Shown here piece by piece: positions 11,239-59,977 of a DNA stretch of 60,327 bases. This stretch comes from a virus. Taxonomy: Duplodnaviria; Caudoviricetes. Each line of letters starts with the position of its first letter. Position 1 is the first letter of the stretch. The stretch is taken from positions 1 to 60,327 of IMG/VR virus record IMGVR_UViG_3300032053_000079; one strand, 5' to 3'. The translations under genes were made by a program, and so were the position numbers. The notes under the pieces are model-generated. The model saw only the letters and a program-made list of their open reading frames with translations, made no database searches and was not told where the DNA came from.

Positions 11239-14200
11239 CTAACAAGTAACATTTGTAATCAAACCTTTATTTATACCTATAACACAATTTCCAATAGTTA
11301 AATTACCAGTAATAGTGCTTCCTGCATAATAATCTAATTTGCTTGTAAAAGGATTATAAGTTGTATAAAAATTAATATTTGTAGTGTTTCCAACAGTAAA
11401 ATTATTTGTTACTAAAGAATTTAAAATATTTGAAACTGAATAACTTGTATAATTAGTATTCCCAGTTGTGTTATAAACAAAAGAATAAATACCTGCTGGA
11501 AAGATGTTTGTAAATGGATTTGATTGATTTACTCCAGATTGATATAAATTACAAGTTAATTGACTTGGACAAGAACTTCCTGTAATTGTTGAGTATGTAG
11601 ATGCTGGAATTGTCCATCCACTACTTGAATTTAAAGATAAAATATAACTTGAATTTTTATCTATTGTATAAGAATAACTAATTGTTTGATTAAAATTATT
11701 AGATGAATCATTAGCCAAGAAAGAATAATTAAATATTCCTGCACTTAATCCTATCAATGTTTTATAATAAACATTTGAAAGATTAGACATTGTATAATTT
11801 ATATTATTAAAACTTAAAATAGCTGTATCAACTTTTACATTGTCTATCCAAGTTATATTAAAATTAACATCTGAATAATACATTATTGGAGATGATGGAT
11901 TTACTGATATATTTGAATAAGTTGGTGGAACTGATTCTGTTATAATTATATTTATGTTTGAATTTCCTATGTTATTATTTGTATCATTACAAAATACATT
12001 AATTAAAACTGAACCTGCTGAAAAGTCTATTGTCCAATTTGTTGAATAATTTTGAGTTGATGAATTTACTCCATTATTTAAATTATACCAACATACACTA
12101 GGATTTAAGTCACTAGATGTATAATTGATTGAAGTTGGTCTGCTTCCATAAGTATATGTTGTTCCATTAACTGGATAAGTTATATTAACTAATGGAAGAA
12201 CATTATCTATTGTAATTAAAGTTATTCCAGCACTACTTATTAAATTCGGAGTATAAAAAGCATTACTTGTACTATTCCCAGCAAACATACTAAAATCTGG
12301 TAAAAGATTTGTTGTACTTGTACTCATATTCCAAACATTCCCATTAGCAGATAAATTCTGCCAAGTAGTATAATTCCAATTTGCCCTTCCTTTTACATAA
12401 AGTTCTTTTACTTCATCAGAAGATAAGCTTCTGTTAAATATCATTATTTCGTCTATTGAGTTGTTTGCATACATAGATAATCCTGCACTAGAATAACTTT
12501 TAACTCCAATAAAAGCATTATTTGAAATAGATAAATTTGAGAATAAACCATTATTTGCGCCAGTACCCACAGAAAGAGTTTTTGAAACTCCATCTAAATA
12601 AATAGTATAATTAGTTCCATTTGCAGTAACAATTACCTGATGCCATTGATTATTAAATAATTCAGTTCTTGTTGCACTAGTATAACCAACTCTATTTCCA
12701 ACAGAACCATCATCTCTTGCAATTGTAATTAATTCATTTGTTAAAGTTCCTGTTACTCCATCTCCAATAAAAACTGCAAATAAATAAGTTCCTGAATAAT
12801 TACCAACACTAAATAAAGTTTGAGAAGTATCTGAACTAGATTTAACCCAGAAACCTAATGAACCCTGAGAATAATTTAAATTACTTGATGAAGATGTTAA
12901 ATTAACATACCCATTCACTCCATCAAAACTTCCCCCTCTAAAATAAACCCCATTTGTTGTAGTATTCGCCCTTCCTGTTGAATTCTGAGCAGTCCCATTA
13001 TTCCTTCCCATTGCATCTTTAACTTCTCCAGTAGTCCCATTCCAAGATGCTTCATCAAAATGATAATAACTAACTAAACCATTAGTCAAACTATTTGATT
13101 GATTATAAACAACAGCAGTATCTGTTCCTGAATTATTTCCTTTTTTATCTTTTGAGTTTCCATTGTCAAATCCCCACCAGGAAACAAGAGAAGCATCATC
13201 ATAATATGAAATATCTCTGCCTTGAGAATAGATATTTGCAATTTCGCTGCTAGACAGCGACTTATTCCATATCATTACTTCGTCGATGGAGCCGTTGAAA
13301 TAAGCTTTCTTTATGGCCTTTCCAATCGTTAAAGACCAGGTATTTGTAATATCACCAATAGAACTTAAATTAATTGCAGAATAATTTATTGCATCAACAT
13401 AAGTTTTTAATATATCTCCATTAAGGTCTATTGTTCCAACAAGATAATGCCAATTACTATCATTTATTGAAGGAGTTCCTGTTGTTGCACTCCAACCAGA
13501 ATTATTTCCTCCAGTATCTTCAACAAATGCATAAGGTTTACCATTAGCATCTAGAAATAAGCCAAATCCTTGTTTACCACTTCCAATCGAACCTCCTACA
13601 ATTTTATCAATAATATCTTTATTTGGTTGGAAACTTTTTACCCAGACACTGATTGTAACTTGATTAGTAATATTCAAACTACTTCCACTTCCCACATCAA
13701 CATAACTACTAGTATTAAACTCCGCCCAATGTGTCCCTAAATCATAATCCTTATATGCACTTCCCCCTACAGACGACCCACTACCAACTACACACGAACC
13801 TGCATCCCAAGCTCCTAATCTCGCACTTATATTGCTTCCAAAAAAAGCATTAAAAGATGTAGATAAATTAACCTGATTATATCCACTTGTTATATTTACT
13901 TGTTTTATTGTCTGAGTTCCTTGTGATTTAAATCTCTTGGATTGATTATTATAAATATCTGAAATCTGTGATGAATTTAATGCAGTGTTGAATATCATTA
14001 CTTCGTCGATGGAGCCGTTGAACTTATAACTTGTAGTTGTTCCAATACCAATTACAAAATTAGATGTTGATAAAGTTCCATTATCCATAGTAATATCTTT
14101 TGTTCCTGCATTTAATCCATTAACATACATAGTCATATTACCAGTTCTATTACCAATAACTATTACATTATACCATAAATTATTTGGACTTAATGCATAA

Positions 14201-15984
14201 TTTATATCTCTCATTCCTGATGCAGTTCCACTTCCCTTTATTCTAGCAGTTAAAATATTACCAATCTGAAATAACCAAAGCCCAGATGTTTCGCTATCAA
14301 CATAAGTTCCCATTATTCCCTCAAGGCTTGTAGAATTAGTTTTATACCAAACACTTAGACTAAAATCAGATGCTCCAATTAATGTATTTACAGTCTTTCC
14401 AGTATTTATATAATTAACAATACCTGTAAATTGATAGCATCCCCCATAAACACAAGTATTATTCCAGGTCGTATTAGTCAGCGTCCCATCATTATTATTC
14501 TTTGAATAATCATAAGTTACATTGTTTGCAGTATTTTCCTGAACATCAAAAGGATAATATGCAACTAAACCAAAATTATCATAGCCATATTGTGTTCCAT
14601 TTACAAATGTTCCATTGTTTGGTCCTATTGTATCCTGTGCAACAGAAATATTTGTATTATCAAATCTCCAGGCACTTACAAGTGAAGTATCTGTATAAGT
14701 TGTATCTTTTCTTCCTAGATTATATAATGAAGTTACTTCTGTTGAATTTAATGAACGATTGAGGATTAGGATGTTGTCGAGGGAGCCGTTGACAAACCAT
14801 GAATTAGCAGAAGTACTAAAATATAACTTTGTTCCAGTATATGCACCTACACCCTCTGTATTTCGATAATAACCAATAGGAACTCCGTTTCTATAAAATG
14901 TTTGATTAAAAATATCTCCAGAAACATTAGTAACTAAAGTATAATGATTCCAACTTCTAATTATACCTGCTCCAGTTATTGGGAATGCTCTTTGTGAACC
15001 TGTGCTATTAATGTGAGAACACTGAAAAATTGTTCCTGTATTAAAACCCATATAAAATTGACTTGATTGGTCTGAATAAAGAATCATCTGATAAGATGAA
15101 CTTGAACCATGATTTGTCCAAAAAGACACTGTAAATGATTCATTAAAATTAGTTACTTTATTGTTTATAGTAACATAACCGCTGCTTCCATCAAAACTTC
15201 CATAACTATTATCATCATCTTGAAAATAAGGCAATTGAGCCTCCCGAGTTGTATAATTAAATCCTCTCCAAGGAGAAGATGTGTCGCCGATTATGTCTAA
15301 GTGACTAAAATTAGCTTCTACAGTTACATTTGTTAAAATAGCTTCAGAAAAAGTAGTAAATGCAGAAATTATATAAGTACTATTGCTCCCTAGTTTTATT
15401 TCATCAACTAAATAAGGATTTTCTATTAATTCAATGCAATTACTTGTTTTACTATCTTTATCAATTACTAGTTTAACTTCTATTTGACTATCTACTTTAG
15501 ATTTAAATGAATCAGTCTTGCTTGATTTAATAGTTGTTGGAACTTTATAATTTTCATATTCTTTTTCTTTTTGTAATTCTTTTAATTTTTCATCAGTAAG
15601 ACAATAATCTATTCTTATATTTTGACCATCTAAATGAGTAAAACTTACATCATAATAAGAATCTATGCCTGTTTGAGAACTAACTATAAACTCTCCTGTT
15701 TTATATTCTTGCTGTCCGAAGTCTAAAGGTATTGTTATTTTATTAGAAATTGGTTTTTCTATATAATCCTTTAACTTAATCCAATTCGAACAATCAACAT
15801 ATCCTTTATTATCTAAAAGATTAGGATAACAACGATTTCCAGAACTAGAAAATCTAAGACATTCCATAACTATTCCTTTTTCTTGACAAAAATGAGTTTT
15901 ATCAGAAATTTGGTAACCAATTCCAGTTAGAATTATAATTAAAGAGATTATTCCCAAACCAATCCAAGCTTTTGAATCAACCAT
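11239..15984 (-). CDS. Large membrane-anchored protein with four LamG/concanavalin-like domains and Ig-like C-terminal modules (about 1581 aa)
   Basis: Likely start ATG 15984 (MVDSKAWIGLG, TM). Four NGS(I/L)D(E/N)-type LamG motifs, GLV(A/S)YYxFD motifs, many N-x-S/T sequons. Confidence 0.85.
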   Translation of the reverse strand: MVDSKAWIGLGIISLIIILTGIGYQISDKTHFCQEKGIVMECLRFSSSGNRCYPNLLDNKGYVDCSNWIKLKDYIEKPISNKITIPLDFGQQEYKTGEFIVSSQTGIDSYYDVSFTHLDGQNIRIDYCLTDEKLKELQKEKEYENYKVPTTIKSSKTDSFKSKVDSQIEVKLVIDKDSKTSNCIELIENPYLVDEIKLGSNSTYIISAFTTFSEAILTNVTVEANFSHLDIIGDTSSPWRGFNYTTREAQLPYFQDDDNSYGSFDGSSGYVTINNKVTNFNESFTVSFWTNHGSSSSYQMILYSDQSSQFYMGFNTGTIFQCSHINSTGSQRAFPITGAGIIRSWNHYTLVTNVSGDIFNQTFYRNGVPIGYYRNTEGVGAYTGTKLYFSTSANSWFVNGSLDNILILNRSLNSTEVTSLYNLGRKDTTYTDTSLVSAWRFDNTNISVAQDTIGPNNGTFVNGTQYGYDNFGLVAYYPFDVQENTANNVTYDYSKNNNDGTLTNTTWNNTCVYGGCYQFTGIVNYINTGKTVNTLIGASDFSLSVWYKTNSTSLEGIMGTYVDSETSGLWLFQIGNILTARIKGSGTASGMRDINYALSPNNLWYNVIVIGNRTGNMTMYVNGLNAGTKDITMDNGTLSTSNFVIGIGTTTSYKFNGSIDEVMIFNTALNSSQISDIYNNQSKRFKSQGTQTIKQVNITSGYNQVNLSTSFNAFFGSNISARLGAWDAGSCVVGSGSSVGGSAYKDYDLGTHWAEFNTSSYVDVGSGSSLNITNQVTISVWVKSFQPNKDIIDKIVGGSIGSGKQGFGLFLDANGKPYAFVEDTGGNNSGWSATTGTPSINDSNWHYLVGTIDLNGDILKTYVDAINYSAINLSSIGDITNTWSLTIGKAIKKAYFNGSIDEVMIWNKSLSSSEIANIYSQGRDISYYDDASLVSWWGFDNGNSKDKKGNNSGTDTAVVYNQSNSLTNGLVSYYHFDEASWNGTTGEVKDAMGRNNGTAQNSTGRANTTTNGVYFRGGSFDGVNGYVNLTSSSSNLNYSQGSLGFWVKSSSDTSQTLFSVGNYSGTYLFAVFIGDGVTGTLTNELITIARDDGSVGNRVGYTSATRTELFNNQWHQVIVTANGTNYTIYLDGVSKTLSVGTGANNGLFSNLSISNNAFIGVKSYSSAGLSMYANNSIDEIMIFNRSLSSDEVKELYVKGRANWNYTTWQNLSANGNVWNMSTSTTNLLPDFSMFAGNSTSNAFYTPNLISSAGITLITIDNVLPLVNITYPVNGTTYTYGSRPTSINYTSSDLNPSVCWYNLNNGVNSSTQNYSTNWTIDFSAGSVLINVFCNDTNNNIGNSNINIIITESVPPTYSNISVNPSSPIMYYSDVNFNITWIDNVKVDTAILSFNNINYTMSNLSNVYYKTLIGLSAGIFNYSFLANDSSNNFNQTISYSYTIDKNSSYILSLNSSSGWTIPASTYSTITGSSCPSQLTCNLYQSGVNQSNPFTNIFPAGIYSFVYNTTGNTNYTSYSVSNILNSLVTNNFTVGNTTNINFYTTYNPFTSKLDYYAGSTITGNLTIGNCVIGINKGLITNVTC
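13269..14022. repeat. Exact 31-bp direct repeat (13269-13299 and 13992-14022); partial third copy at 14776-14792
   Basis: ATATCATTACTTCGTCGATGGAGCCGTTGAA occurs twice; GTCGAGGGAGCCGTTGA occurs once. Confidence 0.95.
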
Positions 15985-16855
15985 AAATATATCCTGACTC
16001 TCGTAATTCCCACGAATTGTCAAAATTAGTATTAGAATCTGCAAAATTAACAGCTGTTGTTTGTCCTGTAGAATTATTTGTAAATTTCTTAATCTGCCAA
16101 ACTAGACTAGAATCTGCACTTCCAGGCACTGCCAAACCTACATAAATAACAAATCCATTAGAATCATAAGCAATTCTTTGAATATAAGTATCTAATAAAT
16201 TAGTTGAATTTACTGTTCCATCGACCGTAATTGTATTTCCTCCATCTTGAATATTAACTGCACTTGCACCGTTTGAATTATTAATTGTAACATCACCTAT
16301 GTCTGTTCCACTAACTAACTTAGTATTTATACTTGCTAAATTTCCCCCAGTTTCTAAAGCCAAAGTAGAAGTATTAAGATTTGTTCCTGCATTAGCAGTT
16401 ACAGTCCCAGTTATAGAAGGTAAAGTTGTTACAGTTCCTACATTTACTGCATCATCAGTAGTATTTAGATGTCTTATATCTAAATGAGTTGCACTAACAT
16501 TTGCATTTAAATTACTAGCAGTAGATTGTTTTACTTCAACAGAATCACTTACACTTGTTAGATCTCTAATATCTAAATTAGTAGCAGTTATTCCTTCACC
16601 ATCAAGTGTAACTTTTACATCGTTAGTTTGAGTTCCAGCAGAGATATTATTAATATCTACATCTTGAACTATTACATTTCCACTTAAAGTAATTTCAGTA
16701 TCTACAGGAAGTGGATTGCTTGAATTAATTACATTACCTGAATCATCTACTAAAATAATTCTTTTTGCTAAAGCTGTTAGAGAATCTTGGTTTGCTTCTT
16801 GTAAATCTAAATCTACAGTTGAACCGTCATTTCTCTTTATTAATCCTCGTGACAT
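15977..16855 (-). CDS. Probable virion fibre/decoration-type protein
   Basis: Thr/Asn/Val-rich repeats (LDIRxL twice) and C-terminal YDSNGFVIYVG...WQIKK domain; own BRE/TATA about 25 nt upstream. Confidence 0.5.
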   Translation of the reverse strand: MSRGLIKRNDGSTVDLDLQEANQDSLTALAKRIILVDDSGNVINSSNPLPVDTEITLSGNVIVQDVDINNISAGTQTNDVKVTLDGEGITATNLDIRDLTSVSDSVEVKQSTASNLNANVSATHLDIRHLNTTDDAVNVGTVTTLPSITGTVTANAGTNLNTSTLALETGGNLASINTKLVSGTDIGDVTINNSNGASAVNIQDGGNTITVDGTVNSTNLLDTYIQRIAYDSNGFVIYVGLAVPGSADSSLVWQIKKFTNNSTGQTTAVNFADSNTNFDNSWELRESGYIYG

Positions 16856-17914: not shown

Positions 17915-17974
17915 TACTATATAAATCTTTATAACTACTTTAAAATAATGAAAAAATAAAAATAAATTAACTAT

Positions 17975-18049: not shown

Positions 18050-18068
18050 TTTTATTACCTCCATTTAG

Positions 18069-42721: not shown

Positions 42722-45700
42722 ATTATATTTTATGCTTGTTATAATGGGAATTATGTTGCTTAGTTTAGCAATGGTTAGTGCAGGAACAGCTATCGACGCT
42801 ATTAAAACTTTTGATTCTGTAGTTCCAAAAATATTAAATGCAACACAATTTAATTCTTCTCAAAATTGGTTTGGTGGAGTTGGATCTAACAATACTTTAA
42901 GGCAAACTTATGATATGAGCAATAATATAGCTTGGGGTTTGATGTGGAGATACAATCACAATCTTACAACAGAACTAGGTTATCCTGATCCCTATTATAA
43001 TAATTTAACAATTAAAAGATATGCTCTATCGATGGGAAAATACCTCGCTGATGTTTATGATCTTAACGACAGTTATCCTTATTCATGGAATGAAGGTTTT
43101 GTTATTAATGCTTTTATTCTCGCTGATTATGCTAATTTTTATCAGGAAGCAAATTCATCAATTCCAAATTTAACAATAGCAGGAGATATAGATTCAACAT
43201 GGACTAATTCAAGTTCAAATCATGTTTATTATGCTAATCCTGAAAGATGGGTAAATCAAACTTCATCAGGTGTAGGTTGGATTGCAGGTAATTCATCAAC
43301 AATATCTTCTCATTTTGTAATTCAAGGACAGCAAGGAAATAATTATTTTGATCTTGATAATAATTCTCTTTTAGATATGGATTTGAGTGTTTGTGTTACT
43401 TATAATGATTCTCATGGCGGAGTTACACCTGCAAAACTTCAAGCTCTAAAACTTGATGGAACAACTTATTATGATGTTATTCTGTTTGCTGACGCTAATA
43501 ATTCACAGATAAAAACTACTTGCGGAACATTCAATCATACAATTACTAAAATGACAAATCATGGAACTACTGATGAGAGAATAACTACTCGATGGACTGG
43601 AAATTTAAATTATGATACACGCAATACAATTTATATTTATAATGCAAGTATTTCAACTCCTGCAACACAGAATTATCCTCGTGGAGCCGACTATCAACTT
43701 GATATGAAACAATATGCTTTAAGAGTTATGAATACATCAGGATCTAATTTTATTGCATTATGGGACGCTGATACTAATTACTGGATAGCAAATCAAAAAT
43801 CAGCAGCTCTTGCTGCTTTAATGTCATGGAATAAAATATTTAAAGACGCATATCAATTCAACGTAACAACTTTTGATAATTCTTCTCTTAATGGAATGTA
43901 TAATGTCACAGCTTATGTAGAAACAGAATATAACACATGGATTATTCACCCTGACGGAATTCCTAAAGAATGGAATGAAGAAATGACTAATAGATTATTT
44001 GGTGGTTACGATTCTAATTATCTTGTAGCTTCAACTGCATACTGGTCTTTGATTCATAATTATTCTTCAAATTCAACATTCAAAGCACAAATATGCTCTG
44101 ATTTAAACAGAACTATGAATAATTTTCAATACTTAATTCTTCCAACTCAAGCTAGTGGATTTCAACAAATAGGATTAGGATCAAGAGTTACTGACGGACA
44201 AAACACATTAATTGGAACTTATAATTCTACATCAGGCAATTTCACATCAGAAGTTCTGCCTTATGGATTATTTTCAATAGTCTATGCTGCAAAATGTGGA
44301 TCAGGATCTCAAAAGCTTAATTATTTCTTAAATAATAATTGGAGTGCAATAGATGATTCTTGGCACAGCGTCGGATATGCAGGACAGACTGAAGGTTGGC
44401 TTATTCATGCTTATAAATTTTGGGATTCTCAAAATGTTAGCTCTGCACCTATGCCTAATCAAGATGGAGTTTCACATTTATTAAACTTGAATAATACAGG
44501 ACTGACTTTTGTAGAGAGAGGAAAATATCTTGCATGGATTTCATACGGTGGAGCTTCACCTTCAGGCGGAATAATATCAGACATACTTAATAAAAATACT
44601 TGGACACATCTATTTTCAGGGAGATCTGTCAATAAAGTAGGTTATGGAATTGGAAAATTAATCAATAATGAAGATCTTATAATTAATGAAACATTTTTCA
44701 CACAATTTGGTGATAAAGAAGCAGATATTGATTCAGCAACTGTTTATCATGCTTATGTTGCCCTAGAAGAAAGATGGATTAATGGATCTAATTTTGAAGA
44801 ACCAAACACAACAAATTCATATATGTATTTAGTTTTTGATAATGCTAATATTTGGGACGCTGATTCAAACAATCAAAGTGATTATGATTTTAATGTAACT
44901 ATCGTCTATAATGATACTTCAAAAGTCCAACAATTAGATATTCTCTATGCAAATGATACTGATTCAACAGGATATTATAGAAATATATCCGCTTTTGCAA
45001 ACCTGAATGATTCACAGATAAAAACAGTTTCTTTTATCTTAAATACCTCTTATAATTTATCTTTCAAAGAACATGGAGCAGGATTAGGATTTAGAAGATA
45101 TGACATGAGATTTGGTGGTGGCGGAGTTGATGGAGATCACTTTATTCAAATTTATAATCTTTCAGTTTCTATGATAGGAAATTCAACTTTATACAAAGAT
45201 ACAGGAGCAACAGAACCTGATTATAATAATGTTTTTGCAGGAGTTACAACAACATCAGAAATTCTTTCAGACACTTATCCATATAAAATAAGATATTCAG
45301 GAAATTTCACAAAAGACACTTCTTCAGGAAATGGAAATAACAATAAAATCCACATATCCGACGACACTTTCATAACAGAATATACTTTCTATGATAATTA
45401 CATAGAGGTTAATCAAACAACTAGTATACCTTCTTTATTAGAATTGTACCCAATATCAATAGCAACAATAGGAACGGATCAGATTAAAGGTGTAGAAGCA
45501 AGAGGAAGTAATAAACTTGATGGTAGTACAATAATTCCTCTTAACTTTATAATGGATTATTCAGATGGCTATAATAATGCATCTTGGGGAATGGTAGATA
45601 AATTTAACTCGTCTGGAAATAGTTATAATTATATTATACAAACAAGTGATACGGGGGGTTTTTTAGAAGTTTTTGGAGATAGTTTTCTTATTAATAATAC

Positions 45701-46316
45701 TGAAGGTTTAGATAATAAAAATGTACCAATTTTTAATCTCACCTCAGCACTCCTAACCAACGGAACATCTTTATGTAATGGTTCAACAGGACTAATGACA
45801 GGAAATGTAAATATAACTTTAAATCCTAATGAATTTTGTTATGTCTTAGATAATTTTAATTTAACCGAAGGAATAAATAGACAATATAGCCCAATCTGGT
45901 TTAGTTCAAGTTCAAGTACAAGTAGAATTATTTCAAATAATCTAACAAATGCAGTAACTATAACAACTTATATTAATCATTCATTACCTAATAGAATATA
46001 TACATATAATGAAAGTCTTATAGAATATCATTCTTTTGGAAATGAGAGTTTTAATAATGATTCAGGACTTATTGAAATAAATTTAACTATTTATCCAGGA
46101 AACAATACTATCAATTTTGACTGTATTGAACCTTTTAATAACATAAATATCTTAGAAAATCTGTCTACTTGTGTAAATAAGTCTTACTCAATCACAAATT
46201 TATATATTTCAAATAACTCAATTTTTACAATAAATGAGGCAAATTTGACAGTGGATAGAATAGAAAAAATATCTGGAAAACTGATTAAAAATACTGGTAG
46301 GTTAATAATCATATAG
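42714..46316 (+). CDS. Large secreted glycoprotein, possibly carbohydrate-active
   Basis: Signal peptide ending VSA; many sequons; internal repeat (ERW(V/I)N...N(N/D)SQIKT). Confidence 0.7.
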   Translation: MNKLYFMLVIMGIMLLSLAMVSAGTAIDAIKTFDSVVPKILNATQFNSSQNWFGGVGSNNTLRQTYDMSNNIAWGLMWRYNHNLTTELGYPDPYYNNLTIKRYALSMGKYLADVYDLNDSYPYSWNEGFVINAFILADYANFYQEANSSIPNLTIAGDIDSTWTNSSSNHVYYANPERWVNQTSSGVGWIAGNSSTISSHFVIQGQQGNNYFDLDNNSLLDMDLSVCVTYNDSHGGVTPAKLQALKLDGTTYYDVILFADANNSQIKTTCGTFNHTITKMTNHGTTDERITTRWTGNLNYDTRNTIYIYNASISTPATQNYPRGADYQLDMKQYALRVMNTSGSNFIALWDADTNYWIANQKSAALAALMSWNKIFKDAYQFNVTTFDNSSLNGMYNVTAYVETEYNTWIIHPDGIPKEWNEEMTNRLFGGYDSNYLVASTAYWSLIHNYSSNSTFKAQICSDLNRTMNNFQYLILPTQASGFQQIGLGSRVTDGQNTLIGTYNSTSGNFTSEVLPYGLFSIVYAAKCGSGSQKLNYFLNNNWSAIDDSWHSVGYAGQTEGWLIHAYKFWDSQNVSSAPMPNQDGVSHLLNLNNTGLTFVERGKYLAWISYGGASPSGGIISDILNKNTWTHLFSGRSVNKVGYGIGKLINNEDLIINETFFTQFGDKEADIDSATVYHAYVALEERWINGSNFEEPNTTNSYMYLVFDNANIWDADSNNQSDYDFNVTIVYNDTSKVQQLDILYANDTDSTGYYRNISAFANLNDSQIKTVSFILNTSYNLSFKEHGAGLGFRRYDMRFGGGGVDGDHFIQIYNLSVSMIGNSTLYKDTGATEPDYNNVFAGVTTTSEILSDTYPYKIRYSGNFTKDTSSGNGNNNKIHISDDTFITEYTFYDNYIEVNQTTSIPSLLELYPISIATIGTDQIKGVEARGSNKLDGSTIIPLNFIMDYSDGYNNASWGMVDKFNSSGNSYNYIIQTSDTGGFLEVFGDSFLINNTEGLDNKNVPIFNLTSALLTNGTSLCNGSTGLMTGNVNITLNPNEFCYVLDNFNLTEGINRQYSPIWFSSSSSTSRIISNNLTNAVTITTYINHSLPNRIYTYNESLIEYHSFGNESFNNDSGLIEINLTIYPGNNTINFDCIEPFNNINILENLSTCVNKSYSITNLYISNNSIFTINEANLTVDRIEKISGKLIKNTGRLIII

Positions 46317-46350: not shown

Positions 46351-46701
46351 ATGGAAAACAAGAATTGGATTGGAATTAGTGTAGTTTCTTTATTGGTAAT
46401 ACTTTCTTCTATTGGTTATGTTATTACAGACCATACATTTTATTGTCAAGAGAAAGGAATTGTTATAGAATGTTTAAGATTTTCAAGTTCTGGATTGAGG
46501 TGTTATCCAAGTTTAACAAGTAATACTGGTTATAAAGATTGTAATGATTGGACTAAACTAAAAACCGAAGATATAAATAAATTACTTAAAACAGAACCGA
46601 TTATAGAACCAGAACCAATTCCGACTTATTCAGGAAATGCAAGGCAATATTGCTGTGGAAAATCTTGTATTAAATTTAATGGTAACACTGATTGTGAATA
46701 G
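46351..46701 (+). CDS. Small membrane-anchored Cys-rich protein, paralog of the N-terminus of 11239-15984
   Basis: CQEKGIV(I/M)ECLRFSSSG(L/N)RCYP shared by both. Confidence 0.8.
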   Translation: MENKNWIGISVVSLLVILSSIGYVITDHTFYCQEKGIVIECLRFSSSGLRCYPSLTSNTGYKDCNDWTKLKTEDINKLLKTEPIIEPEPIPTYSGNARQYCCGKSCIKFNGNTDCE

Positions 46702-46713: not shown

Positions 46714-47619
46714 ATAGGACTACAAACTGCAAATTTTAGAGGAACGAATTGTTCGGGAGTAGATGGTACTAGTAATAGAACTCTAACATTAGCAAATACA
46801 TTAGAAACTGATGATGATAGTTTTTTAGTAGTAGTAAATGGACTTGTTTTAATTCCAACTGCCGATTTTACAGTAGACCATAATGCTTCTGCTTCTGTTA
46901 TTACTTTTTTAAATCCTCTTTTTAATGACCAATATATTTTAGTTCAGTATGGAGAAGGATTTGTTCAAACTACTTCTGGTTATTGTTCTGGTGATGATGT
47001 AAGAGTAATGACAAATATAACTACAACTGATGTTTCTAGTGCAGATATGACTAATCTTATCGCACAAAGTACGATTCAAGTAAACCAAGATATAAATGTA
47101 ACAGTTCATAGAGAATTTGTTAGTTATATAGACCAGACTAGGAATAATTACATAAACGGTACAAATACAGAATTTTATGTAAGAAACTGGAATGGTTATC
47201 ACTTAGCCGATTCAAATAATGATGGTTCGGTTACCACTTCAGATGTAATATTTTATCAAGTAACAAGTGCAGGTGTAGAAACACAATTAACAGTAAGTAG
47301 TATAGATGATGAAAATTGTAAAATAACTTTAAGTTCTGCACCAAGTCCAGGAAATAGGTACTATATAGATTATGCTTATTCAGTAGTTGAAGAAGATACT
47401 CCAGACCCTAGAGTAAAATTAGCTACTATTTTTCTAACTGCTGCTTATTGTTATGCTAAATTAAATATCGGTTGTGCTCCTAATGTTTCGTTTGGTTCTG
47501 TTAGAGTTACAAAAGATATGGATTCTTTTAATCATTATTATCAAAGATACTTAGATGTTATCAGTCAAATTAACTCTTTGGAGGAAGTTCACTCTAAATT
47601 GAGTGATAATACTTTCTAA
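46714..47619 (+). CDS. Head-tail adaptor-like protein; probable ATA start
   Basis: Frame is open 98 codons upstream of ATG 47008; GGGGGT SD before ATA 46714; YCSGDDVR and VKLATIFLTAAY adaptor-like motifs. Confidence 0.6.
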   Translation: MGLQTANFRGTNCSGVDGTSNRTLTLANTLETDDDSFLVVVNGLVLIPTADFTVDHNASASVITFLNPLFNDQYILVQYGEGFVQTTSGYCSGDDVRVMTNITTTDVSSADMTNLIAQSTIQVNQDINVTVHREFVSYIDQTRNNYINGTNTEFYVRNWNGYHLADSNNDGSVTTSDVIFYQVTSAGVETQLTVSSIDDENCKITLSSAPSPGNRYYIDYAYSVVEEDTPDPRVKLATIFLTAAYCYAKLNIGCAPNVSFGSVRVTKDMDSFNHYYQRYLDVISQINSLEEVHSKLSDNTF

Positions 47620-48263
47620 TGAAAGTTTTTGTTGCTTTACCTGTTTTTAATTTGATAAATCCGAAAGTCAAAGACAATCAAAATGGATTTTTACATTCTA
47701 AACATACTGTTCTCTTTAATCAAGTAGTGGGTGCTAGTCCAGAACATGCAAGGTCAATTATGATTAATAAGTTCTTACAGACAGATTGTGAATACTATTT
47801 TACAATAGATACAGATATTTATTATCTAGGAGACTATTTAGATGTTATAGATAGACTAATTTCTTTAGATAAAGATATAGTAGGTGGACTTTATGTATAT
47901 AAAAAATCTCCTTGTTTGCCAGTTTTTAGACCAATTGATTTACAAGAAATATACGAACGAGATGGTAAATTTCCTGATAAATATGACTGGATAATACCAA
48001 ATGATGTCTTTGAGGTAAAATGGCTTGGAAACGGCTTTAAAATGGTTAAAAGAGAGGTTATAGAACGAATTAGAGAGAAGATTATATGTCCTAACTTACC
48101 TATGATTCATAAAGGAGAATACATTAGTGAGGATTATGCAATGGACTTCCGTGCAAGAGAATTAGGATATAAAATATTTGTTGATCCTACTATTAAACTC
48201 GGACATGAAGGATTACACATTTTTACTAGAGAAGATTTTATAAATAATGATAATCTTATTTAA
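47619..48263 (+). CDS. Glycosyltransferase (GT-A fold)
   Basis: IDTD (DxD), GNGFKMV, SEDY and VDPTIKLGH. Confidence 0.85.
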   Translation: MKVFVALPVFNLINPKVKDNQNGFLHSKHTVLFNQVVGASPEHARSIMINKFLQTDCEYYFTIDTDIYYLGDYLDVIDRLISLDKDIVGGLYVYKKSPCLPVFRPIDLQEIYERDGKFPDKYDWIIPNDVFEVKWLGNGFKMVKREVIERIREKIICPNLPMIHKGEYISEDYAMDFRARELGYKIFVDPTIKLGHEGLHIFTREDFINNDNLI

Positions 48264-54580: not shown

Positions 54581-54749
54581 AGAGAAAGACCAATTTGCAA
54601 GACTATGTCAAATAATGACACTTTGTGGAGGATATGAAAAATTCCTTGAAACTCCGATACCTACACTTAGAGAATTAAGTAACTATTGTGATTATATGGA
54701 AGAAAAGGAAAATGAAAGACTACAAGCAATGTTTGGTAAAAAGAAATAA
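54510..54749 (+). CDS. Second tail chaperone ORF (gpT-like), overlapping the first
   Basis: Overlaps 54248-54580 by 71 nt and abuts TMP; YEKFLETPIP. Confidence 0.55.
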   Translation: MVLQKMNELEKLKNRFLSNKRTPKEKDQFARLCQIMTLCGGYEKFLETPIPTLRELSNYCDYMEEKENERLQAMFGKKK

Positions 54750-56098
54750 TGGCAGTTGAAACAATAACAATTATAACTGAAATGATAGACCGAGCTAGTG
54801 GTAAACTTCAAAAAGTCCAAGAAGTTACACAACAATTTAATCATTCTGCCAGAACTATGACACAGACTACTCAAAAGTTAAATGCAGAGACTAATAAATT
54901 AGAAACTATTACAAAAAAGACTACTAAAGGATTAAAGACATTTCAATTTGAATTTTTATCAGTAATGTTTTTAGGAATGGCAATAAATAGAGTATTTAGC
55001 CAATATGTTAAAAATGCTTTAGAAATGACTGGAATTACAGAACTTTTTAATGAAACACTTAGTTTAATGGTATTCTCTGCTTTAGAACCATTTTTAGAAA
55101 TATTTTATGGATTAATTGATGCATTTCTTAACTTACCTGAACCTGTACAAAAAGCAATTGGTTGGTTTATTATAATTGCTACAGTTCTTTCTGGAGTTGC
55201 TATGTGGTTTGCTATTCTTAAATTAGGATTAGGTGGACTTGCTCAGGCAATAAGTGGACCTATGATGGGTGCCATTGGAGGTTTAATTGGTGCTGTAGGA
55301 TTAGCTGGAATTATAGCAATTATTGCTGTTATTTTAGTAATTTTGGTTGGAATGTATAATGCTTGGAAAACTAATTTTATGGGTATGAAAGAAGTTATTT
55401 CTAATATGGTGGAAGGAATTAAACAAATGTTTGGAGGAATGTTTGATGTATTAAAAGGATTAGTTCAGTTTTTTTATGCACTTTTTACAGGAGATACACA
55501 AAAAGCAAAACAAGCAATATCTCTTATCTGGCAAGGACTTAAAAATTTTATAGTAGGTTTACTTCAAGCACTTGCTAATTTTATAGTAGCCGTTGGAATT
55601 GGAATAATCAATGTCTTTGTAAATGTAGTAAAGACGGTTTGGAATTTATTTGTAGATTTCGGAGGTAAAATGTTTCAATGGGGTCTTGATTTTGTAATGA
55701 ATATAATAAATGGTATTTTATCAACTGGAAGAGGAATTATAAATACCATACTTAGTTTATTTCCTGCATGGATGAGAAACATGATAGAATCTTCTGGAAC
55801 TATAACAATTAATATTATTCAAAGTATAACTGAGGTAGTTAGTAGAGTTACAAAAAGACAACATGGTGGTTCTGTTTTAGGTGGTAATCCTTATATCGTA
55901 GGTGAAGCAGGACCTGAATTATTTGTTCCAAGTGGTGGTGGAAATATAGTTCCTAATAATCAACTTGGTGGAAGTGGACAAATTGTATTTTCACCGATTT
56001 ATAACATAAATGTAGCAGATAGACATGAGTTCGAAATATTAATAAAGAATAATAACAATAGATTAGTGGAGGATCTTAGACGTCTTGTAAACGATTAG
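54749..56098 (+). CDS. Tape measure protein
   Basis: Helical and amphipathic with periodic W/F; C-terminal RQHGG...YIVGEAGPELFVP motif. Confidence 0.88.
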   Translation: MAVETITIITEMIDRASGKLQKVQEVTQQFNHSARTMTQTTQKLNAETNKLETITKKTTKGLKTFQFEFLSVMFLGMAINRVFSQYVKNALEMTGITELFNETLSLMVFSALEPFLEIFYGLIDAFLNLPEPVQKAIGWFIIIATVLSGVAMWFAILKLGLGGLAQAISGPMMGAIGGLIGAVGLAGIIAIIAVILVILVGMYNAWKTNFMGMKEVISNMVEGIKQMFGGMFDVLKGLVQFFYALFTGDTQKAKQAISLIWQGLKNFIVGLLQALANFIVAVGIGIINVFVNVVKTVWNLFVDFGGKMFQWGLDFVMNIINGILSTGRGIINTILSLFPAWMRNMIESSGTITINIIQSITEVVSRVTKRQHGGSVLGGNPYIVGEAGPELFVPSGGGNIVPNNQLGGSGQIVFSPIYNINVADRHEFEILIKNNNNRLVEDLRRLVND

Positions 56099-56099: not shown

Positions 56100-56531
56100 A
56101 TGGCACCATCAGAACTTACTTTAACAAAAAATAGTATAAATGTAACAATTTATGCAAGAAGAATCGAAGATGGATTTAAGAATAAACTTACTACAATTAC
56201 TCCAGCAGTAGGCAGACAAAGTCAATCAGCAGGACCTAAAGATACTAAAGTAGTAGACTTACTTAGATTAACTCGTTCATTTAGAATAGATGGATATGTA
56301 GTAAGTAATACAGACAAAGCAAGTTTAATTAGTCTTATTGAAGGTGCTGGAACAAATGGGGGTCCTATAACTTTATCTTTTTCAGAAGGTGGAGATGCAA
56401 CTAGTTTTGAAGTTTTTGTAGAAGATTGTATTTTTGTATATGAATCTCAAGATGAACCAACAAGTCCTCCAGATGATTTAGCTAAACACTCTGTAAACAT
56501 AACTTTAATAAAAGGTGTTCAAATTGGCTAA
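56100..56531 (+). CDS. Distal tail (Dit-like) protein
   Basis: 143-aa beta-rich protein directly after TMP. Confidence 0.55.
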   Translation: MAPSELTLTKNSINVTIYARRIEDGFKNKLTTITPAVGRQSQSAGPKDTKVVDLLRLTRSFRIDGYVVSNTDKASLISLIEGAGTNGGPITLSFSEGGDATSFEVFVEDCIFVYESQDEPTSPPDDLAKHSVNITLIKGVQIG

Positions 56532-59500
56532 TGGTAAATAAAAAAGTAATTATTGGAATTGGAACAGGAATAGTTACATTAACAAGTCTTTTCTTATTTT
56601 TATCTTCATTAGGTTTTCAAATTATAGACATTACTGGAAATCTTGTTTGTGCTGGTAATTTAACTAATCCTTGTATCTCTGAATTTCAAGTTAAAAATCC
56701 TACAAAATATAATATAGATATTTATAATCCTAATCAAACGAAATTAGATTTTATTCCAGAAGTAAAAGACTATGTTTTATTTTACAAAGACGGAACTTGC
56801 AAAAATACAACTAAAATCTGCCAATGTACTCTAAAAGATAAAACTAAATTAGGATATAATGGATGGAGATGTATAGATTTTACAAATGCTACTAAAAAAT
56901 CAAAAACAACTGCTTATAATTTCAGATTTCCTGCATATTCTACAATTAACTTTAGATTAGTTGGTTTTAAGAATAATCCAAATCAAGACATTAAATGGAC
57001 TTTTGAAACTTCAAATTCTACTTTAGATCCTTGGTGGTATTCTATTTCTGGAACTCCAAATATTTCAACAACTTCTTTAACTATGGAATTAGGAAGTCAA
57101 GTAAATATTACTGCTAATTTAACAGGTTATTCTGGAACTGTTTGTGTAGATATTGACCATCCAAGTTATGGAATTAATTATTCTTGTGGAACTCCTTCTG
57201 CTAATTTTTTATTTAATATAACTTATTTTAGAAATAATCAATTTAATGATAGTTCTACTATAAAAAATATTTCCTTTGGTAATTGTTATCAAGAATCAGC
57301 AAATAGTTCATCAGGTTGTGGAGATTTAGATACAGGAACTTATAGTGTTTCAAATAATGGAGCATCTCAAACTCTTATGCAAACCTATTTTAATATAAAT
57401 TATTCTAAACCAGTTAATGCTAATAATATCTATTCAGAATGGATTGTAAAACATGGAGATTTATCTGAATATCCAATTACTATTCTTCCTTCTTGTTGGA
57501 ATTATAATTCAAATAAATTAATTTTAAGAATAGTTTCGGAAAACAATATAACTGCCCCTTATTCTAAAAGTTATCCACAATGTTATAATGGAAGTTGGAA
57601 TACTATTGGTTCTACATCAGTTACTAGTGCTTGTTGTTTTAGTCAGTCTGGAAATGAATATCCTTACTTTTTATATGATGGTAACTGGAGTTCTTATGCT
57701 TTAGGTTCTAGATATGGAACTTGGTTAAATTCAACTAGTAGTCCTTCAATGCAGTATGTTTACGAAGAAGCAATGAATTGGAAATATGATTATGTTTTTT
57801 ATATAAAACAACATCAATATGATGAAATAGTTAATGCTTCTATTAATATTTCTGGATATATTTCTAATGGAACTTATCCAACTAATGTAAAACTTTATAT
57901 AAATAATACTTTAAGTAATAATCTTGGATTAATTTATTCTGGGAATATTATTCTAAATACATTAAATGATAGTTCTACAATTAAAAATATTTCTTTTGAC
58001 CAAGCTGAAACAAACATTGTTTATTTAAAAATTCCAAAAAATGCTAATATACTCAATTCTAATATTAATCTTAGTGGTTTTAAAAATTACGATTATTGTT
58101 ATCAAGAAAGTTCTAATAAATCTTCTTCTTATGACACAACTTTTTGTAGTTTTAATTATACTGGAACATATACTTGTTCTGGAACTTGGGATAATACTGG
58201 GTATGGATATACTTGTGATAAAACTTATGATGAAAATTGGGATACTTTAGGAATGGCTGGGGGAATGGGTGTAGTAACAGGGAATGTATATATAAATTAT
58301 TCTAAACCATTAAATATTAATAATGGAAGTTTATGGCGGGTTAAAGATGGATGTTCAATTCAAAATCTAACAATTCCATCTTCTTGTTTGGATTATAATG
58401 CCAATAAAGTTTCATTTATGGCAGAATCACATTATTCTGGAACTCCAAGTCCAAGATGGACTAAATGGTATTGTTTAAATAGTTCTGGTTGGGGATTATT
58501 AAAAGAATGTAGTGGACAACCATATTATGTTACTCCTCAAGCAATATATGAAGAAGCAATGATTTGGAATGTCTCATTTTATCCACTAAATTCTTCATTG
58601 GAAGTTGGAACTATTGATGGAACAAAAGAATGGAACTATACAGGAAATTTTAATGTAACAAATAATAAAACTTCTAATTTTAATACTTCTATTATGACTT
58701 ATCTTTCTTCCTGTACTCAAGATTCTGATGGATATTGTAATATGCCTTTATATTTTATAAGTTTATCTGCTGGGATTATCCAAGTTTCAGATATTCAAAT
58801 TAATTATACATCTAATCTAAATCCTGTTTATTTAAACACTAATTTAATGAGTTCGTTTTTAGGCAATTCTACTAATTTTGCCAATATTCCAATTAAATTT
58901 GAATCTACTCAAAATGGAACATTACAAATAGATGATATTAGATTAGATTATCGTGGAGGAAATGACACTATTGAAATTAAAGTTCATAATTCTACTTATA
59001 CTCAAAATGAAACAATTAATATTACTGTATTTTATTCAGATTGGGATTACTCTTTTCCTTATAGAGTAAATTATTTAGAGTTTATACCAAAAAGTTCTAA
59101 TAGTAAAAATGTAACTCCTTATGGACAAACAAGTCTTACTCCTATTTTTAATATTACTATGACTAATTATGGTGGTAGAAATGCTAATTTATCAATTTAT
59201 TTAAATGAATCTATGTCTTGTGTTAATTTAAGTGCAAGTACTCAAGGTAATGTTAATAATATTTTTTATTCAGATTATTCTTGTTATCAAGAGACTGCAA
59301 ATGTTTCTACTATATGCGGAGGATTAAACAATGGAAGTTATTCCCCCCAATCCAATTATTTATACATAAATTATTCAAAACCTTCTTATGCTTTAAATTC
59401 AAGTCTATGGCAAGTTAAATATGGGGGGACTTATTATTCGGGATCAGGGGCAATTTTATATTTTACAAATTTAACTATAGATAATAGTTGTTTTAGTCAA

Positions 59501-59977
59501 CCTAATTTACAATTTAGGTTTTATACTCTTAAATTTAATTGTGGTTCAAGTTCATATCCTCAATGTTATAATGGAACTAATTGGGTAACTATAGGAAATG
59601 TAAGTAATGGAGGTGCTTGTAGAACAGGTGCAACACAAACATCAGTATCTAATTATTATGATGGAAACTGGAATACAGGAGTCTTGTATAATACCGATGA
59701 AAGAGACCCACTTGGATACGTTCAGGGACAGAGTGATTATGATACTGGAACTGTTTATGAAGAAGCAATGATTTGGGATATAAGTTCAATAAATTCTTGG
59801 AAACTAAATAATACTTGGCAAGATATATTTACAAATAAATCATATCTTTCTAATCAAGGTATATGGTTTTTTGCAGATTATTCTTGTAATTTTTCATATT
59901 TTAAATTATTCAATCCAGACATATATTTAAAAAATTGTTGCTATGGATGTGATGTTTGTAGTAATGATTTAATTTAG
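56531..59977 (+). CDS. Large membrane-anchored Cys-rich glycoprotein with three internal repeats
   Basis: N-terminal TM; three copies of CYQE...INYSKP...W-x-VK...SC...YEEAM-x-W. Confidence 0.8.
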   Translation: MVNKKVIIGIGTGIVTLTSLFLFLSSLGFQIIDITGNLVCAGNLTNPCISEFQVKNPTKYNIDIYNPNQTKLDFIPEVKDYVLFYKDGTCKNTTKICQCTLKDKTKLGYNGWRCIDFTNATKKSKTTAYNFRFPAYSTINFRLVGFKNNPNQDIKWTFETSNSTLDPWWYSISGTPNISTTSLTMELGSQVNITANLTGYSGTVCVDIDHPSYGINYSCGTPSANFLFNITYFRNNQFNDSSTIKNISFGNCYQESANSSSGCGDLDTGTYSVSNNGASQTLMQTYFNINYSKPVNANNIYSEWIVKHGDLSEYPITILPSCWNYNSNKLILRIVSENNITAPYSKSYPQCYNGSWNTIGSTSVTSACCFSQSGNEYPYFLYDGNWSSYALGSRYGTWLNSTSSPSMQYVYEEAMNWKYDYVFYIKQHQYDEIVNASINISGYISNGTYPTNVKLYINNTLSNNLGLIYSGNIILNTLNDSSTIKNISFDQAETNIVYLKIPKNANILNSNINLSGFKNYDYCYQESSNKSSSYDTTFCSFNYTGTYTCSGTWDNTGYGYTCDKTYDENWDTLGMAGGMGVVTGNVYINYSKPLNINNGSLWRVKDGCSIQNLTIPSSCLDYNANKVSFMAESHYSGTPSPRWTKWYCLNSSGWGLLKECSGQPYYVTPQAIYEEAMIWNVSFYPLNSSLEVGTIDGTKEWNYTGNFNVTNNKTSNFNTSIMTYLSSCTQDSDGYCNMPLYFISLSAGIIQVSDIQINYTSNLNPVYLNTNLMSSFLGNSTNFANIPIKFESTQNGTLQIDDIRLDYRGGNDTIEIKVHNSTYTQNETINITVFYSDWDYSFPYRVNYLEFIPKSSNSKNVTPYGQTSLTPIFNITMTNYGGRNANLSIYLNESMSCVNLSASTQGNVNNIFYSDYSCYQETANVSTICGGLNNGSYSPQSNYLYINYSKPSYALNSSLWQVKYGGTYYSGSGAILYFTNLTIDNSCFSQPNLQFRFYTLKFNCGSSSYPQCYNGTNWVTIGNVSNGGACRTGATQTSVSNYYDGNWNTGVLYNTDERDPLGYVQGQSDYDTGTVYEEAMIWDISSINSWKLNNTWQDIFTNKSYLSNQGIWFFADYSCNFSYFKLFNPDIYLKNCCYGCDVCSNDLI

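Follow-up and report, generated by a model that had tools for sequence, protein, structure and literature searches.

Giant, sequon-rich proteins with predicted export signals in a tailed virus, including one in a conserved slot of the tail module

Five giant genes in a 60-kb tailed-virus genome

We analysed the complete virus record IMGVR_UViG_3300032053_000079 (Duplodnaviria; Caudoviricetes), a stretch of 60,327 nt (the window) with a GC content of ~27%, a 125-bp direct terminal repeat, and a unit genome of 60,202 bp. The subject of this report is a set of five genes, G1 to G5 (Table 1), all of which are intact open reading frames (ORFs) encoding proteins of 582–1581 aa that appear to carry N-terminal export signals and are enriched in N-x-S/T glycosylation sequons. 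Together, these five giants cover 16,812 nt, or 27.9% of the unit genome; an earlier note, made from the sequence alone, had given their coordinates and sizes correctly, and its estimate that they fill over a quarter of the genome is confirmed. G5 is flanked by a 143-aa ORF, located 3′ of the tape measure gene, and by the gene for a hub-like tail protein; G2–G4 are flanked by genes adjacent to the major capsid protein (MCP) gene and by connector genes. The positions proposed in the earlier note, with G5 before the hub and G2–G4 before the connector genes, therefore stand, but its labels ‘Dit’ and ‘head fibre’ are positional and have no profile match. The 143-aa protein in the Dit position had no match in the Pfam, PHROG, and NCBIfam scans of the window proteins; its homologues lie upstream of the giant in related viruses.

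The giants are low in Lys (3.9% vs. 10.1%) and Glu (2.7% vs. 7.5%) and rich in Asn (12.5% vs. 6.7%), Thr (9.9% vs. 6.3%), and Ser. The Cys pairs that had also been ascribed to all five hold for G5 only, which contains 36 Cys; the Cys content of the giants overall is 1.4%, compared to 1.5% elsewhere. Laminin_G_3 domains (PF13385, cut-off 27.6) were found in G1 (229.4 bits in four stretches) and G2 (63.2 bits), and the same profile scan found none in G3, G4, or G5. Residues ~520–900 of G2 matched Pfam GH39 (glycoside hydrolase family 39) with E 4.7e-5 and 22.8 bits, which is under the cut-off of 26; the top language-model neighbours of this region all belong to clan GH-A (GH39/GH5-type; scores 0.90–0.94), and the motifs ‘MNEP’ and ‘GEWN’, which would correspond to the acid/base NEP and nucleophile Glu motifs of clan GH-A, can be read in the sequence. 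This region thus probably represents a GH39-like (clan GH-A) glycanase. In G3, each 11-residue repeat holds one sequon, and a 33-nt tandem repeat is present at 40996–41101. The C-terminal ‘stalk’ of G4 recurs in ~70 proteins that consist of a signal peptide, a beta-helix/NosD, LamG, or deacetylase domain, the stalk, and a C-terminal membrane anchor, as would be expected of proteins at the cell surface. Such an anchor is missing from the C-terminus of G4, whose N-terminal 650 aa have few relatives; a search for homologues of near-equal length returned only G4, atlas neighbours of the whole protein reached an uninformative score of 0.80, and phmmer searches against PDB sequences gave nothing useful for either G2 or G4.

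Three kinds of N-terminal modules were distinguished, including the G5 type (a transmembrane (TM) segment plus ~130 aa), the G2 type, and the G1 type. The G5-type and G2-type modules are unrelated (hhalign probability 0.3%). The G1 type also occurs free-standing, as p116, which is encoded directly 3′ of G4 and is 62% identical over 71 aa to the G1 N-terminus (first 72 residues; 15769–15984); p116 might be a separate membrane dock beside the anchor-less G4. G5 contains three Cys-rich ‘CYQE..YEEAM’ repeats and a conserved ~55-aa C-terminus; in its N-module, C40 and C48 are invariant in the family and an N-A-T at 119–121 is conserved. The AlphaFold model of G5 is a chain of beta-sandwiches with a mean pLDDT (predicted local distance difference test) of 60, and a Foldseek search of PDB with the whole model found nothing at E ≤ 1e-3; the model of the N-module has a mean pLDDT of 65, with a core of ~80–90.

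Table 1. Positions of the giant genes and of other features of the window.
Feature	Positions	Strand	Length	Remarks
G1	11239..15984	-	1581 aa	Signal anchor and Cys-rich module, four Laminin_G_3 domains, C-terminal beta domains (predicted)
G2	37366..40632	+	1088 aa	Signal anchor, own N-module (TM + ..KINVSKTSTTFYV), Laminin_G_3, GH39-like region, C-terminal beta domains (predicted)
G3	40817..42565	+	582 aa	Predicted signal peptide (..VTA/IE), 11-residue repeats, globular C-terminal part
G4	42714..46316	+	1200 aa	Predicted classical signal peptide (..VSA/GT), N-terminal 650 aa, C-terminal ‘stalk’ at ~990–1090
G5	56531..59977	+	1148 aa	Predicted signal anchor (MVNKK and 24 hydrophobic residues), ~170-aa N-module, repeats, beta-sandwiches
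p116	46351..46701	+		Free-standing predicted signal anchor and Cys-rich module
Tape measure protein	54749..56098	+	449 aa	Four hydrophobic segments; PHROG phrog_58, E 6.3e-20
Protein in Dit position	56100..56531	+	143 aa	Assigned by position only; stop codon overlaps the G5 start codon
Hub-like tail protein	59986..60327, continuing at 3–1304	+	~506 aa	ORF crosses the terminal repeat
p292, fibre-like	15977..16855	-	292 aa	N/S/T-rich, no signal; stop overlaps the G1 start
SAM-dependent methyltransferase	51917–52546	+		Pfam Methyltransf_11, E 1.8e-8
Family-2 glycosyltransferase (GT2)	52519–53280	+		Glycos_transf_2, E 4.3e-8, 33.7 bits (cut-off 23.3)
Probable second glycosyltransferase	47619..48263	+	214 aa	phrog_1574; just after the giant block
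Probable tRNA-Thr(UGU)	48924–48996	+		Rfam RF00005, 28.6 bits (gathering score 29)
tRNA-Asn(GUU)	49000–49071	+		Rfam RF00005, 56.4 bits; in tandem with tRNA-Thr
Direct terminal repeat	1–125 and 60203–60327		125 bp	Falls inside the hub-like tail gene

Export signals and sequon excess

All five giants begin with Lys or Arg residues followed by a hydrophobic stretch of 17–24 residues, so that the signal peptides or TM anchors read in them by the earlier note were found, by eye, in 5/5. The division into signal peptides and signal anchors was likewise judged by eye from the sequence. G3 and G4 look like proteins with cleavable-type signal peptides, whereas G1, G2, and G5 look like signal anchors; small residues are present at −3/−1 of the predicted cleavage sites (marked by a slash) in G3 (VTA/I), in G4 (VSA/G), and in an ORF of the related contig L020 (VSG/Q). 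Among 60 homologues of G5 in a large protein collection, all of them metagenomic, 57 have kept the N-terminal hydrophobic segment. In the G5 family (n = 38), the net charge averages +3.3 before the segment and −2.1 in the following 15 residues, and 37/38 members follow the positive-inside rule, which indicates an N-in/C-out orientation. In L020 (5475–9811), the gene in the position of G5 is split into a 209-aa ORF with the anchor and N-module and a 1236-aa ORF (sequon z 9.4) with a separate signal peptide of the classical type, suggesting that the distal part needs export in its own right. Furthermore, three full-length relatives of G4 (P0063, P0069, and P0137) differ in their signal peptides while the first residues that follow the predicted cleavage site (..IDAIKT.D) are conserved. 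The split gene in L020 and these conserved residues argue that the N-termini are really export signals.

Sequon counts were compared to those expected from 500 shuffles of each protein’s own sequence. Observed and expected numbers of N-x-S/T were 76 and 41.5 for G1 (z 6.6), 48 and 29.0 for G2 (z 4.2), 31 and 18.4 for G3 (z 3.5), 62 and 25.9 for G4 (z 8.7), and 59 and 28.1 for G5 (z 7.0), representing a 1.6- to 2.4-fold excess over the expectation from composition. Control motifs in the same proteins were flat, with z values of −0.9 to 1.6 for the reversed motif [ST]-x-N and −1.9 to 2.2 for D/Q/K-x-S/T. The dense sequons reported in the earlier note, now checked against shuffles (z 3.5–8.7), are thus not explained by composition alone. 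Other proteins of the window had a sequon z of −1.9 to 0.6; the capsid protein contained no sequons (2.8 expected), and the portal, terminase, tape measure, and hub proteins showed no excess in the shuffle test. Two signal-less, fibre-like proteins served as controls, a 754-aa protein encoded next to the MCP gene (z 0.1) and the N/S/T-rich 292-aa protein p292 (z 0.6). By sequon density, the giants are the top five ORFs of the window, with 4.3–5.3 sequons per 100 aa, followed by a 57-aa ORF (3.5) and p292 (3.1). For the Tal, tail spike, and tape measure proteins of phage SPP1 (NC_004166), z ranged from −1.1 to 1.5.

The same relationship was found across 28 non-redundant related viral contigs, for which all plus-strand ORFs with a complete N-terminus and a length of 200 aa or more were evaluated. 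ORFs with an N-terminal hydrophobic segment (n = 38) contained 1254 sequons vs. 549 expected (median z 5.65; z ≥ 3 in 27/38), whereas ORFs without such a segment (n = 143) contained 436 vs. 394 expected (median z 0.02; z ≥ 3 in 3/143), a difference in z with a Mann–Whitney p of 6e-18. The sequon excess is specific to signal-bearing proteins. We consider it probable that the giants are Sec-exported and N-glycosylated outside the membrane; as the earlier note had proposed, they look like exported proteins exposed to extramembrane N-glycosylation, unlike the other structural proteins of this virus.

The giants could instead be ordinary cytoplasmic fibres, with hydrophobic N-termini that are buried in the virion or inserted into the target membrane on infection, and with a sequon excess that results from cytoplasmic glycosylation by viral transferases or from a structural bias of beta-rich fibres. 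TM segments are described in tail proteins such as tape measures in passages of PMC4641393. One or two glycosyltransferases are encoded in the structural operon of the window. HMW1C-type cytoplasmic N-x-S/T glycosylation of giant adhesins is known, as is glycosylation of virions by phage transferases. We nevertheless regard cytoplasmic fibres as improbable: the signals of G3, G4, and the split L020 ORF are of the classical cleavable type, with small residues at −3/−1; the signal-less 754-aa and 292-aa proteins, which are similar in composition, show no sequon excess, and neither do SPP1 Tal and tail spike; and the viral transferases are GT2-like and not of family GT41, to which the known cytoplasmic N-glycosyltransferases belong. 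In addition, the composition of the giants (low Lys and Glu, high Asn, Ser, and Thr) and their shared domains match those of proteins with a signal peptide and a C-terminal anchor.

A conserved tail-tip slot and the destination of the giants

A search of viral contigs with the single G5 sequence gave no match, and a multi-sequence G5 alignment then found relatives. A second search, seeded with the hub to avoid selecting on G5, identified 15 contigs, seven of them new, with hub identities of 31–61%. In 15/15 of these contigs, the ORF directly upstream of the hub gene encodes a giant (849–1750 aa) with a sequon z of 5.5–9.6; the N-terminal hydrophobic segment is visible in 14/15, and the fifteenth is cut by the contig end. 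The start and stop codons of these giants abut or overlap those of the neighbouring genes, and genes for a tape measure protein and a homologue of the 143-aa protein are found upstream of the slot wherever the contig reaches. Judged by gene order, a giant in the slot between the Dit position and the hub, downstream of the tape measure gene, is a fixed feature of this virus group. The fixed slot is the strongest fact of our analysis and had been missed by the earlier note.

Within the G5 family, the N-module (residues 1–170) is 39–55% identical across 16 viruses, while the distal parts are shuffled. The hub is conserved, and the tail module contains no other large variable protein. The family thus has the build of receptor-binding proteins, with a conserved N-module, variable distal domains, and a gene in the tail module; because G5 is the only large variable protein of the tail module, has this build, and is encoded with abutting or overlapping codons, we interpret it as a candidate receptor-binding fibre. 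The head-side slot is more variable. Relative L015 has one giant there, and L057 and L059 have a G3-like protein after a homologue of a 203-aa protein. As for G1, which lies with its upstream partner p292 on the other strand in the window, the gene just after the hub in L002 encodes a homologue of the p292 C-terminus and is followed by a gene for a signal-bearing protein with a G1-like C-terminal motif.

A 189-aa basic ORF lies within the G5-type gene and interrupts it in four relatives (L016, L017, L018, and L019, of which the three complete ones are near-identical; e.g., L016:9228-12657). By eye, this ORF looks like a homing endonuclease of the HNH/NUMOD type; the interruption may be an intron-like insertion. 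The HNH/NUMOD3 endonuclease of the window (6266–6928) has BLAST homologues elsewhere in the tail modules of relatives, e.g., between the tape measure and Dit-position genes in L002 and upstream in L016.

In the scheme that we favour, the giants would enter the host Sec pathway via a signal peptide (G3 and G4) or an N-in/C-out signal anchor (G1, G2, and G5) and would, outside the membrane, be heavily N-glycosylated by a host oligosaccharyltransferase of the AglB/STT3 type; the glycan may be modified by the viral glycosyltransferase(s) and methyltransferase. The outer modules (LamG lectin, GH39-like glycanase, coiled-coil, and beta-sandwich) would bind or cut surface glycans. G5 would be the host-recognition fibre, maturing on the outer face of the membrane while tethered there by an anchor of low hydrophobicity with many small residues; lysis or de-energisation of the cell would free it from the membrane, as with signal-anchor-release (SAR) endolysins, and only then would it join the tail tip. 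G1–G4 would be accessory members of the same export class. The full chain of export, N-glycosylation, and entry of G5 into virions after export is a tentative proposal that we rate somewhat short of an even chance, and its last step, joining after release, is purely our inference. The more specific idea of an extracellular assembly step, in which a Sec-exported and N-glycosylated tail fibre is joined to the tail tip at or after lysis, we regard as doubtful.

The comparison with SAR endolysins derives from the composition of the anchors. Anchors of the G5 family (n = 38) have a KD19 of 2.26 and a G/A/S/T fraction of 0.35, compared to 2.90 and 0.21 for the permanent C-terminal anchors of signal-peptide proteins homologous to G4 (n = 70); they thus appear weakly hydrophobic, rich in small residues, and SAR-like.

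Several points weigh against this scheme. The place of the giants in virions is inferred from gene position and build, export and glycosylation are deduced from sequence statistics, and the SAR-like character of the anchors is read from composition alone, for which no threshold has been calibrated in archaea. We know of no route by which an exported protein could join a tail built in the cytoplasm. The modelled fold of the G5 N-module matched no known baseplate or fibre adaptor (the best Z of 4.1, from a wide VIA search, is at noise level, and BFVD gave nothing at E ≤ 1e-3). The unrelated G5-type and G2-type N-modules both fill the slot between the Dit position and the hub in different viruses, and giants encoded in head-side neighbourhoods (L015, L009, and L012) likewise start with the G5-type module. 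Because of this swapping of modules and their use on the head side, a generic membrane anchor fits the N-modules better than a specific tail-docking domain. Lastly, relative L054, whose capsid protein is 52% identical, is without G2–G4, and its capsid-adjacent genes directly adjoin the connector genes.

Several of these observations fit a scheme in which the giants are exported and glycosylated but never enter virions, and in which they stay on or around the infected cell, in the membrane or surface layer, and remodel its surface. Possible functions include masking or cutting of receptors (resulting in superinfection exclusion or easier release from debris), loosening of the envelope or matrix before lysis, and changed adhesion to partner cells. 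All of the export and sequon evidence applies equally to this alternative, and the exchange of unrelated N-modules between the tail slot and the head-side slots, the free-standing anchor modules (p116 beside the anchor-less G4 and the 209-aa ORF in L020), the G4 stalk common to ~70 proteins with a signal peptide and a C-terminal anchor, and the probable glycanase in G2 all speak for it. Exported proteins are also known from phage late operons, as exemplified by lambda lom and bor. An adhesion role has been published as a proposal for LamG proteins of viruses of DPANN and Candidate Phyla Radiation (CPR) hosts, in passages of PMC11310336. Conversely, placement between the Dit position and the hub in 15/15 contigs, with abutting or overlapping codons, is unlike that of accessory genes for surface conversion; the tail module, with its conserved hub, would be left without a large variable receptor binder; and late co-expression with virion genes suits superinfection exclusion poorly. 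We thus see surface remodelling as a substantial but lesser possibility. Cell-surface remodelling, as suggested in the earlier note, is a possible reading, but the conserved tail slot argues no less strongly for a virion fibre.

The accessory nature of G2–G4 also bears on whether the giants are recent, functionless captures of genes for host surface proteins. G4 has few full-length relatives, G2–G4 are missing from L054, and the domains of the giants are common to proteins with signal peptides and C-terminal anchors. However, all five ORFs are intact, with signals and sequon excess maintained, the N-modules of the G5 family are virus-specific, and its slot has stayed fixed among contigs with hub identities as low as 31%. 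Functionless capture hence seems very unlikely, and G2–G4 are, as far as gene content indicates, accessory cargo that is intact and not decaying. The sporadic occurrence that the earlier note had named as a sign of host captures was thus seen in part for G2–G4, which are absent from L054, and not for G5, which is in its slot in 15/15 contigs.

The membrane or vesicle coat that the earlier note had offered as an alternative is not borne out, as the head–tail gene set is ordinary and nothing in it points to an envelope. Virions that leave the cell wrapped in membrane, with the giants as spikes, would agree with the presence of several candidate membrane-anchored glycoproteins among the virion genes, which is the only support that we found. 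The genes are those of a standard tailed virus that has no envelope, none of the window genes was recognised as a matrix, fusion, or budding gene, G3 and G4 look cleaved and soluble, and we know of no enveloped tailed virus. We rate an envelope as the least probable of the possibilities considered here.

Comparisons to known systems

The assembly of head–tail viruses is taken to be entirely cytoplasmic, and passage through secretion and N-glycosylation is not expected of their fibres. In passages of a census of viral membrane proteins, signal peptides are reported for <5% (PMC4641393). Our literature searches found no description, for the tail-module proteins of tailed viruses, of export signals combined with sequon excess. 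That related viruses, as a whole group, keep an export-signal-bearing, sequon-enriched giant in the core tail-tip slot is hard to square with cytoplasmic assembly, and the window virus contributes as many as four further giants of this kind, along with glycosyltransferase(s) of its own and tRNAs for both Asn and Thr. If G5 is a fibre, maturation of tail fibres outside the cell would be a previously unknown step of virion assembly and would give a tailed virion a shield of glycans, and G5 would be the first tail fibre to be N-glycosylated and made through secretion; if the giants remodel the surface, tailed viruses of (probably) archaea would invest a quarter of the genome in the surface of the infected cell. 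An N-terminal signal combined with sequon excess over shuffles also provides a cheap flag for extracellular viral proteins and archaeal hosts in metagenomes.

The closest parallel to the proposed release of G5 is found in phage endolysins, for which passages of PMC6116005 describe Sec export and release of a SAR anchor upon de-energisation of the membrane at lysis as established. Like the giants, Sec and SAR endolysins such as fOg44 Lys44 and P1 Lyz are late proteins of tailed viruses that have an N-terminal signal or weak anchor and use host Sec (PMC6116005 and PMC7143992), and the anchors of the G5 family share their weak hydrophobicity and G/A/S/T richness. SAR endolysins are, however, small lytic enzymes encoded in the lysis cassette, whereas the proteins described here are lectin, adhesin, or glycanase proteins of 580–1580 aa, one of them encoded in the tail-tip cassette, with a sequon excess implying N-glycosylation. 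Bacillus phage SPP1 (NC_004166) shares the order of tube, chaperone, tape measure, small distal protein, and hub-like genes, but its Dit and Tal genes have no gene between them, and neither an N-terminal signal nor a sequon excess is found in its large tail proteins.

Lambda Lom and Bor are exported ‘moron’ surface proteins encoded in the late operon by small, sporadic genes of lysogenic conversion, and PblA and PblB of Streptococcus mitis phage SM1 are tail proteins that also act as adhesins on the cell surface, which they reach via lysis and without signal peptides. These examples resemble the giants as surface proteins encoded among tail genes or as tail proteins at the cell surface, but are neither N-glycosylated nor fixed between Dit and hub. 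Spikes of the Halorubrum pleomorphic virus (HRPV) VP4 type are N-glycosylated and have a signal peptide. They provide a case of archaeal virus receptor-binding proteins made via host export and N-glycosylation; unlike the window virus, with its HK97-type head–tail genes, these viruses bud as membrane vesicles, and their spike is retained in what will be the virion membrane. The HRPV VP4-type spike of pleomorphic archaeal viruses is named in Table 1 of PMC13437554. For viruses of CPR and DPANN hosts, passages of Wu et al. 2024 (PMC11310336) describe concanavalin/LamG proteins and glycosyltransferases and propose a function in adhesion; LamG proteins and glycosyltransferases encoded by viruses of ultrasmall symbionts are thus shared features, and the general idea of symbiont adhesion, which the earlier note had presented as part of an undescribed system, is already in print. 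The main text of PMC11310336 does not use the term ‘signal peptide’, and the passages available from it are silent on sequon enrichment, the tail slot, and a giant modular build.

Host, glycan enzymes, and other features of the genome

GenBank virus matches of the MCP and of G1 are to archaeal viruses only, and the only GenBank match of the MCP is to Altiarchaeum virus BK059162 (L094). The LamG ‘structural protein’ of the Altiarchaeum virus has no signal and a sequon z of 0.2. BK059162 also encodes (17367–18914, minus strand) a 515-aa protein, hp30, with a classical signal peptide, a Cys/Asn-rich start, and a sequon z of only 1.5. A search of a genome collection with a smaller G5 alignment yielded two contigs, a 3-kb contig of a ‘Candidatus Woesearchaeota’ metagenome-assembled genome (MAG), which carries a fragment of the G5 N-module, and a 17-kb contig of a Planctomycetaceae MAG, which is L020. 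The Woesearchaeota MAG also has an STT3 match (55.6 bits; cut-off 24.5). A Planctomycetaceae origin was not accepted for L020; its gene content is viral, and its assignment is probably a binning error. The MCP was found in neither the Woesearchaeota nor the Planctomycetaceae MAG. Among sequencing runs, the only one listed with the full sequence is a sediment metagenome, perhaps the source itself, and no RNA run is listed.

Among 401 genomes of the phylum of the Woesearchaeota MAG, the large terminase (TerL) had nine matches, seven of them full-length with E ≤ 4e-25, and three of these seven on contigs of 97–665 kb; in a control set of 401 Planctomycetota genomes, it had 32 matches, the best with 9e-18. 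Further results from this phylum weigh against our scheme: the similarity of three proviruses to the window is limited to TerL and portal, and the signature of signal plus sequon excess is missing from their large proteins; the hub alignment matched 3/401 genomes (best 3e-9); the G5 repeat domain was found weakly in 4/201 genomes; and P0098, a protein with a signal peptide and a C-terminal anchor, matched partially in 25/301 genomes (best 2e-7). Because the three proviruses of DPANN genomes are without the signature, the trait would belong to this virus group and not to all viruses of the phylum. A DNA search with the tRNAs gave only short matches, in 4/201 genomes; like the provirus, hub, and surface-domain results, this weakens the assignment to DPANN. 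In an 8189-aa frame of one genome (L090–L092; G313:C2, ~321.6–325.7 kb), the C-terminal ~75 residues of the hub profile matched three times (E 2e-6 to 2e-4), which may mean that the hub tip has a domain in common with a giant cellular protein of this phylum. General N-glycosylation outside the cytoplasm is the rule in archaea, and the export-linked sequon excess fits a host with such a system. Overall, the host is likely archaeal; a DPANN host is plausible only and modestly supported.

The methyltransferase gene overlaps the GT2 gene between the neck and tail-tube genes, and homologues are located beside the tube gene in L002 and L015. The pair is reminiscent of the enzymes of the Agl pathway that build the lipid-linked N-glycan on the cytoplasmic side, a possible parallel. 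A homologue of the probable second glycosyltransferase in L015 (55% identical) matched Glycos_transf_2 with E 3.6e-4, and an ‘IDTD’ motif is readable; in relatives L056–L059, the gene for this enzyme is relocated between the portal and scaffold genes. Neither tRNA was found by ARAGORN in the window. The tRNA-Asn and the probable tRNA-Thr match the two residues of N-x-T, the sequon type with the strongest enrichment; of 1546 Asn codons counted, 701 fall in the giants.

The genome is organised in two arms. The minus-strand arm (3155–24229) contains small genes, including those for RusA, the HNH/NUMOD3 endonuclease, a radical-SAM protein, and DNA-binding proteins. The other arm extends from 24749 to the end of the record and runs on into 1–2879; it starts with genes for an RNA ligase and a C5 DNA methylase, followed in order by those for the large terminase, portal, HK97-type MCP, head-closure protein, and neck/tail-completion protein, and it ends with those for the methyltransferase, GT2, tube-position protein, chaperone, 449-aa tape measure, 143-aa protein, G5, and hub-like protein. 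From its profile matches and order, the gene set is siphovirus-like, with an ordinary series of TerL, portal, HK97-type MCP, connector, tube, and tape measure genes; the NCBIfam scan of the window proteins added nothing firm. The hub-like protein matched phrog_400 (‘tail protein’) with E 6.6e-12 and Pfam YQBQ-like with E 9.6e-6 (25.6 bits, under the cut-off of 27), and, with the terminal repeat inside its gene, the linear record shows this gene as two open-ended pieces.

Downstream of the hub gene (1306–2879), three small proteins (85, 54, and 72 aa) with one hydrophobic segment each are encoded together with a 242-aa protein that has an N-terminal anchor, a Pro-rich linker, and zero sequons. 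No family was matched by these proteins in the profile scans, and the group may be a lysis cassette. The gene for the 754-aa protein, located 3′ of the capsid gene (33820–36084), lies in the most GC-rich stretch of the genome (0.366 vs. about 0.27). Its N-terminal motif ..G.HSG.. is common to much shorter proteins (206–330 aa) encoded at the same place in L054, L058, and L059, a pattern that would be that of a capsid-bound decoration with a variable outer part.

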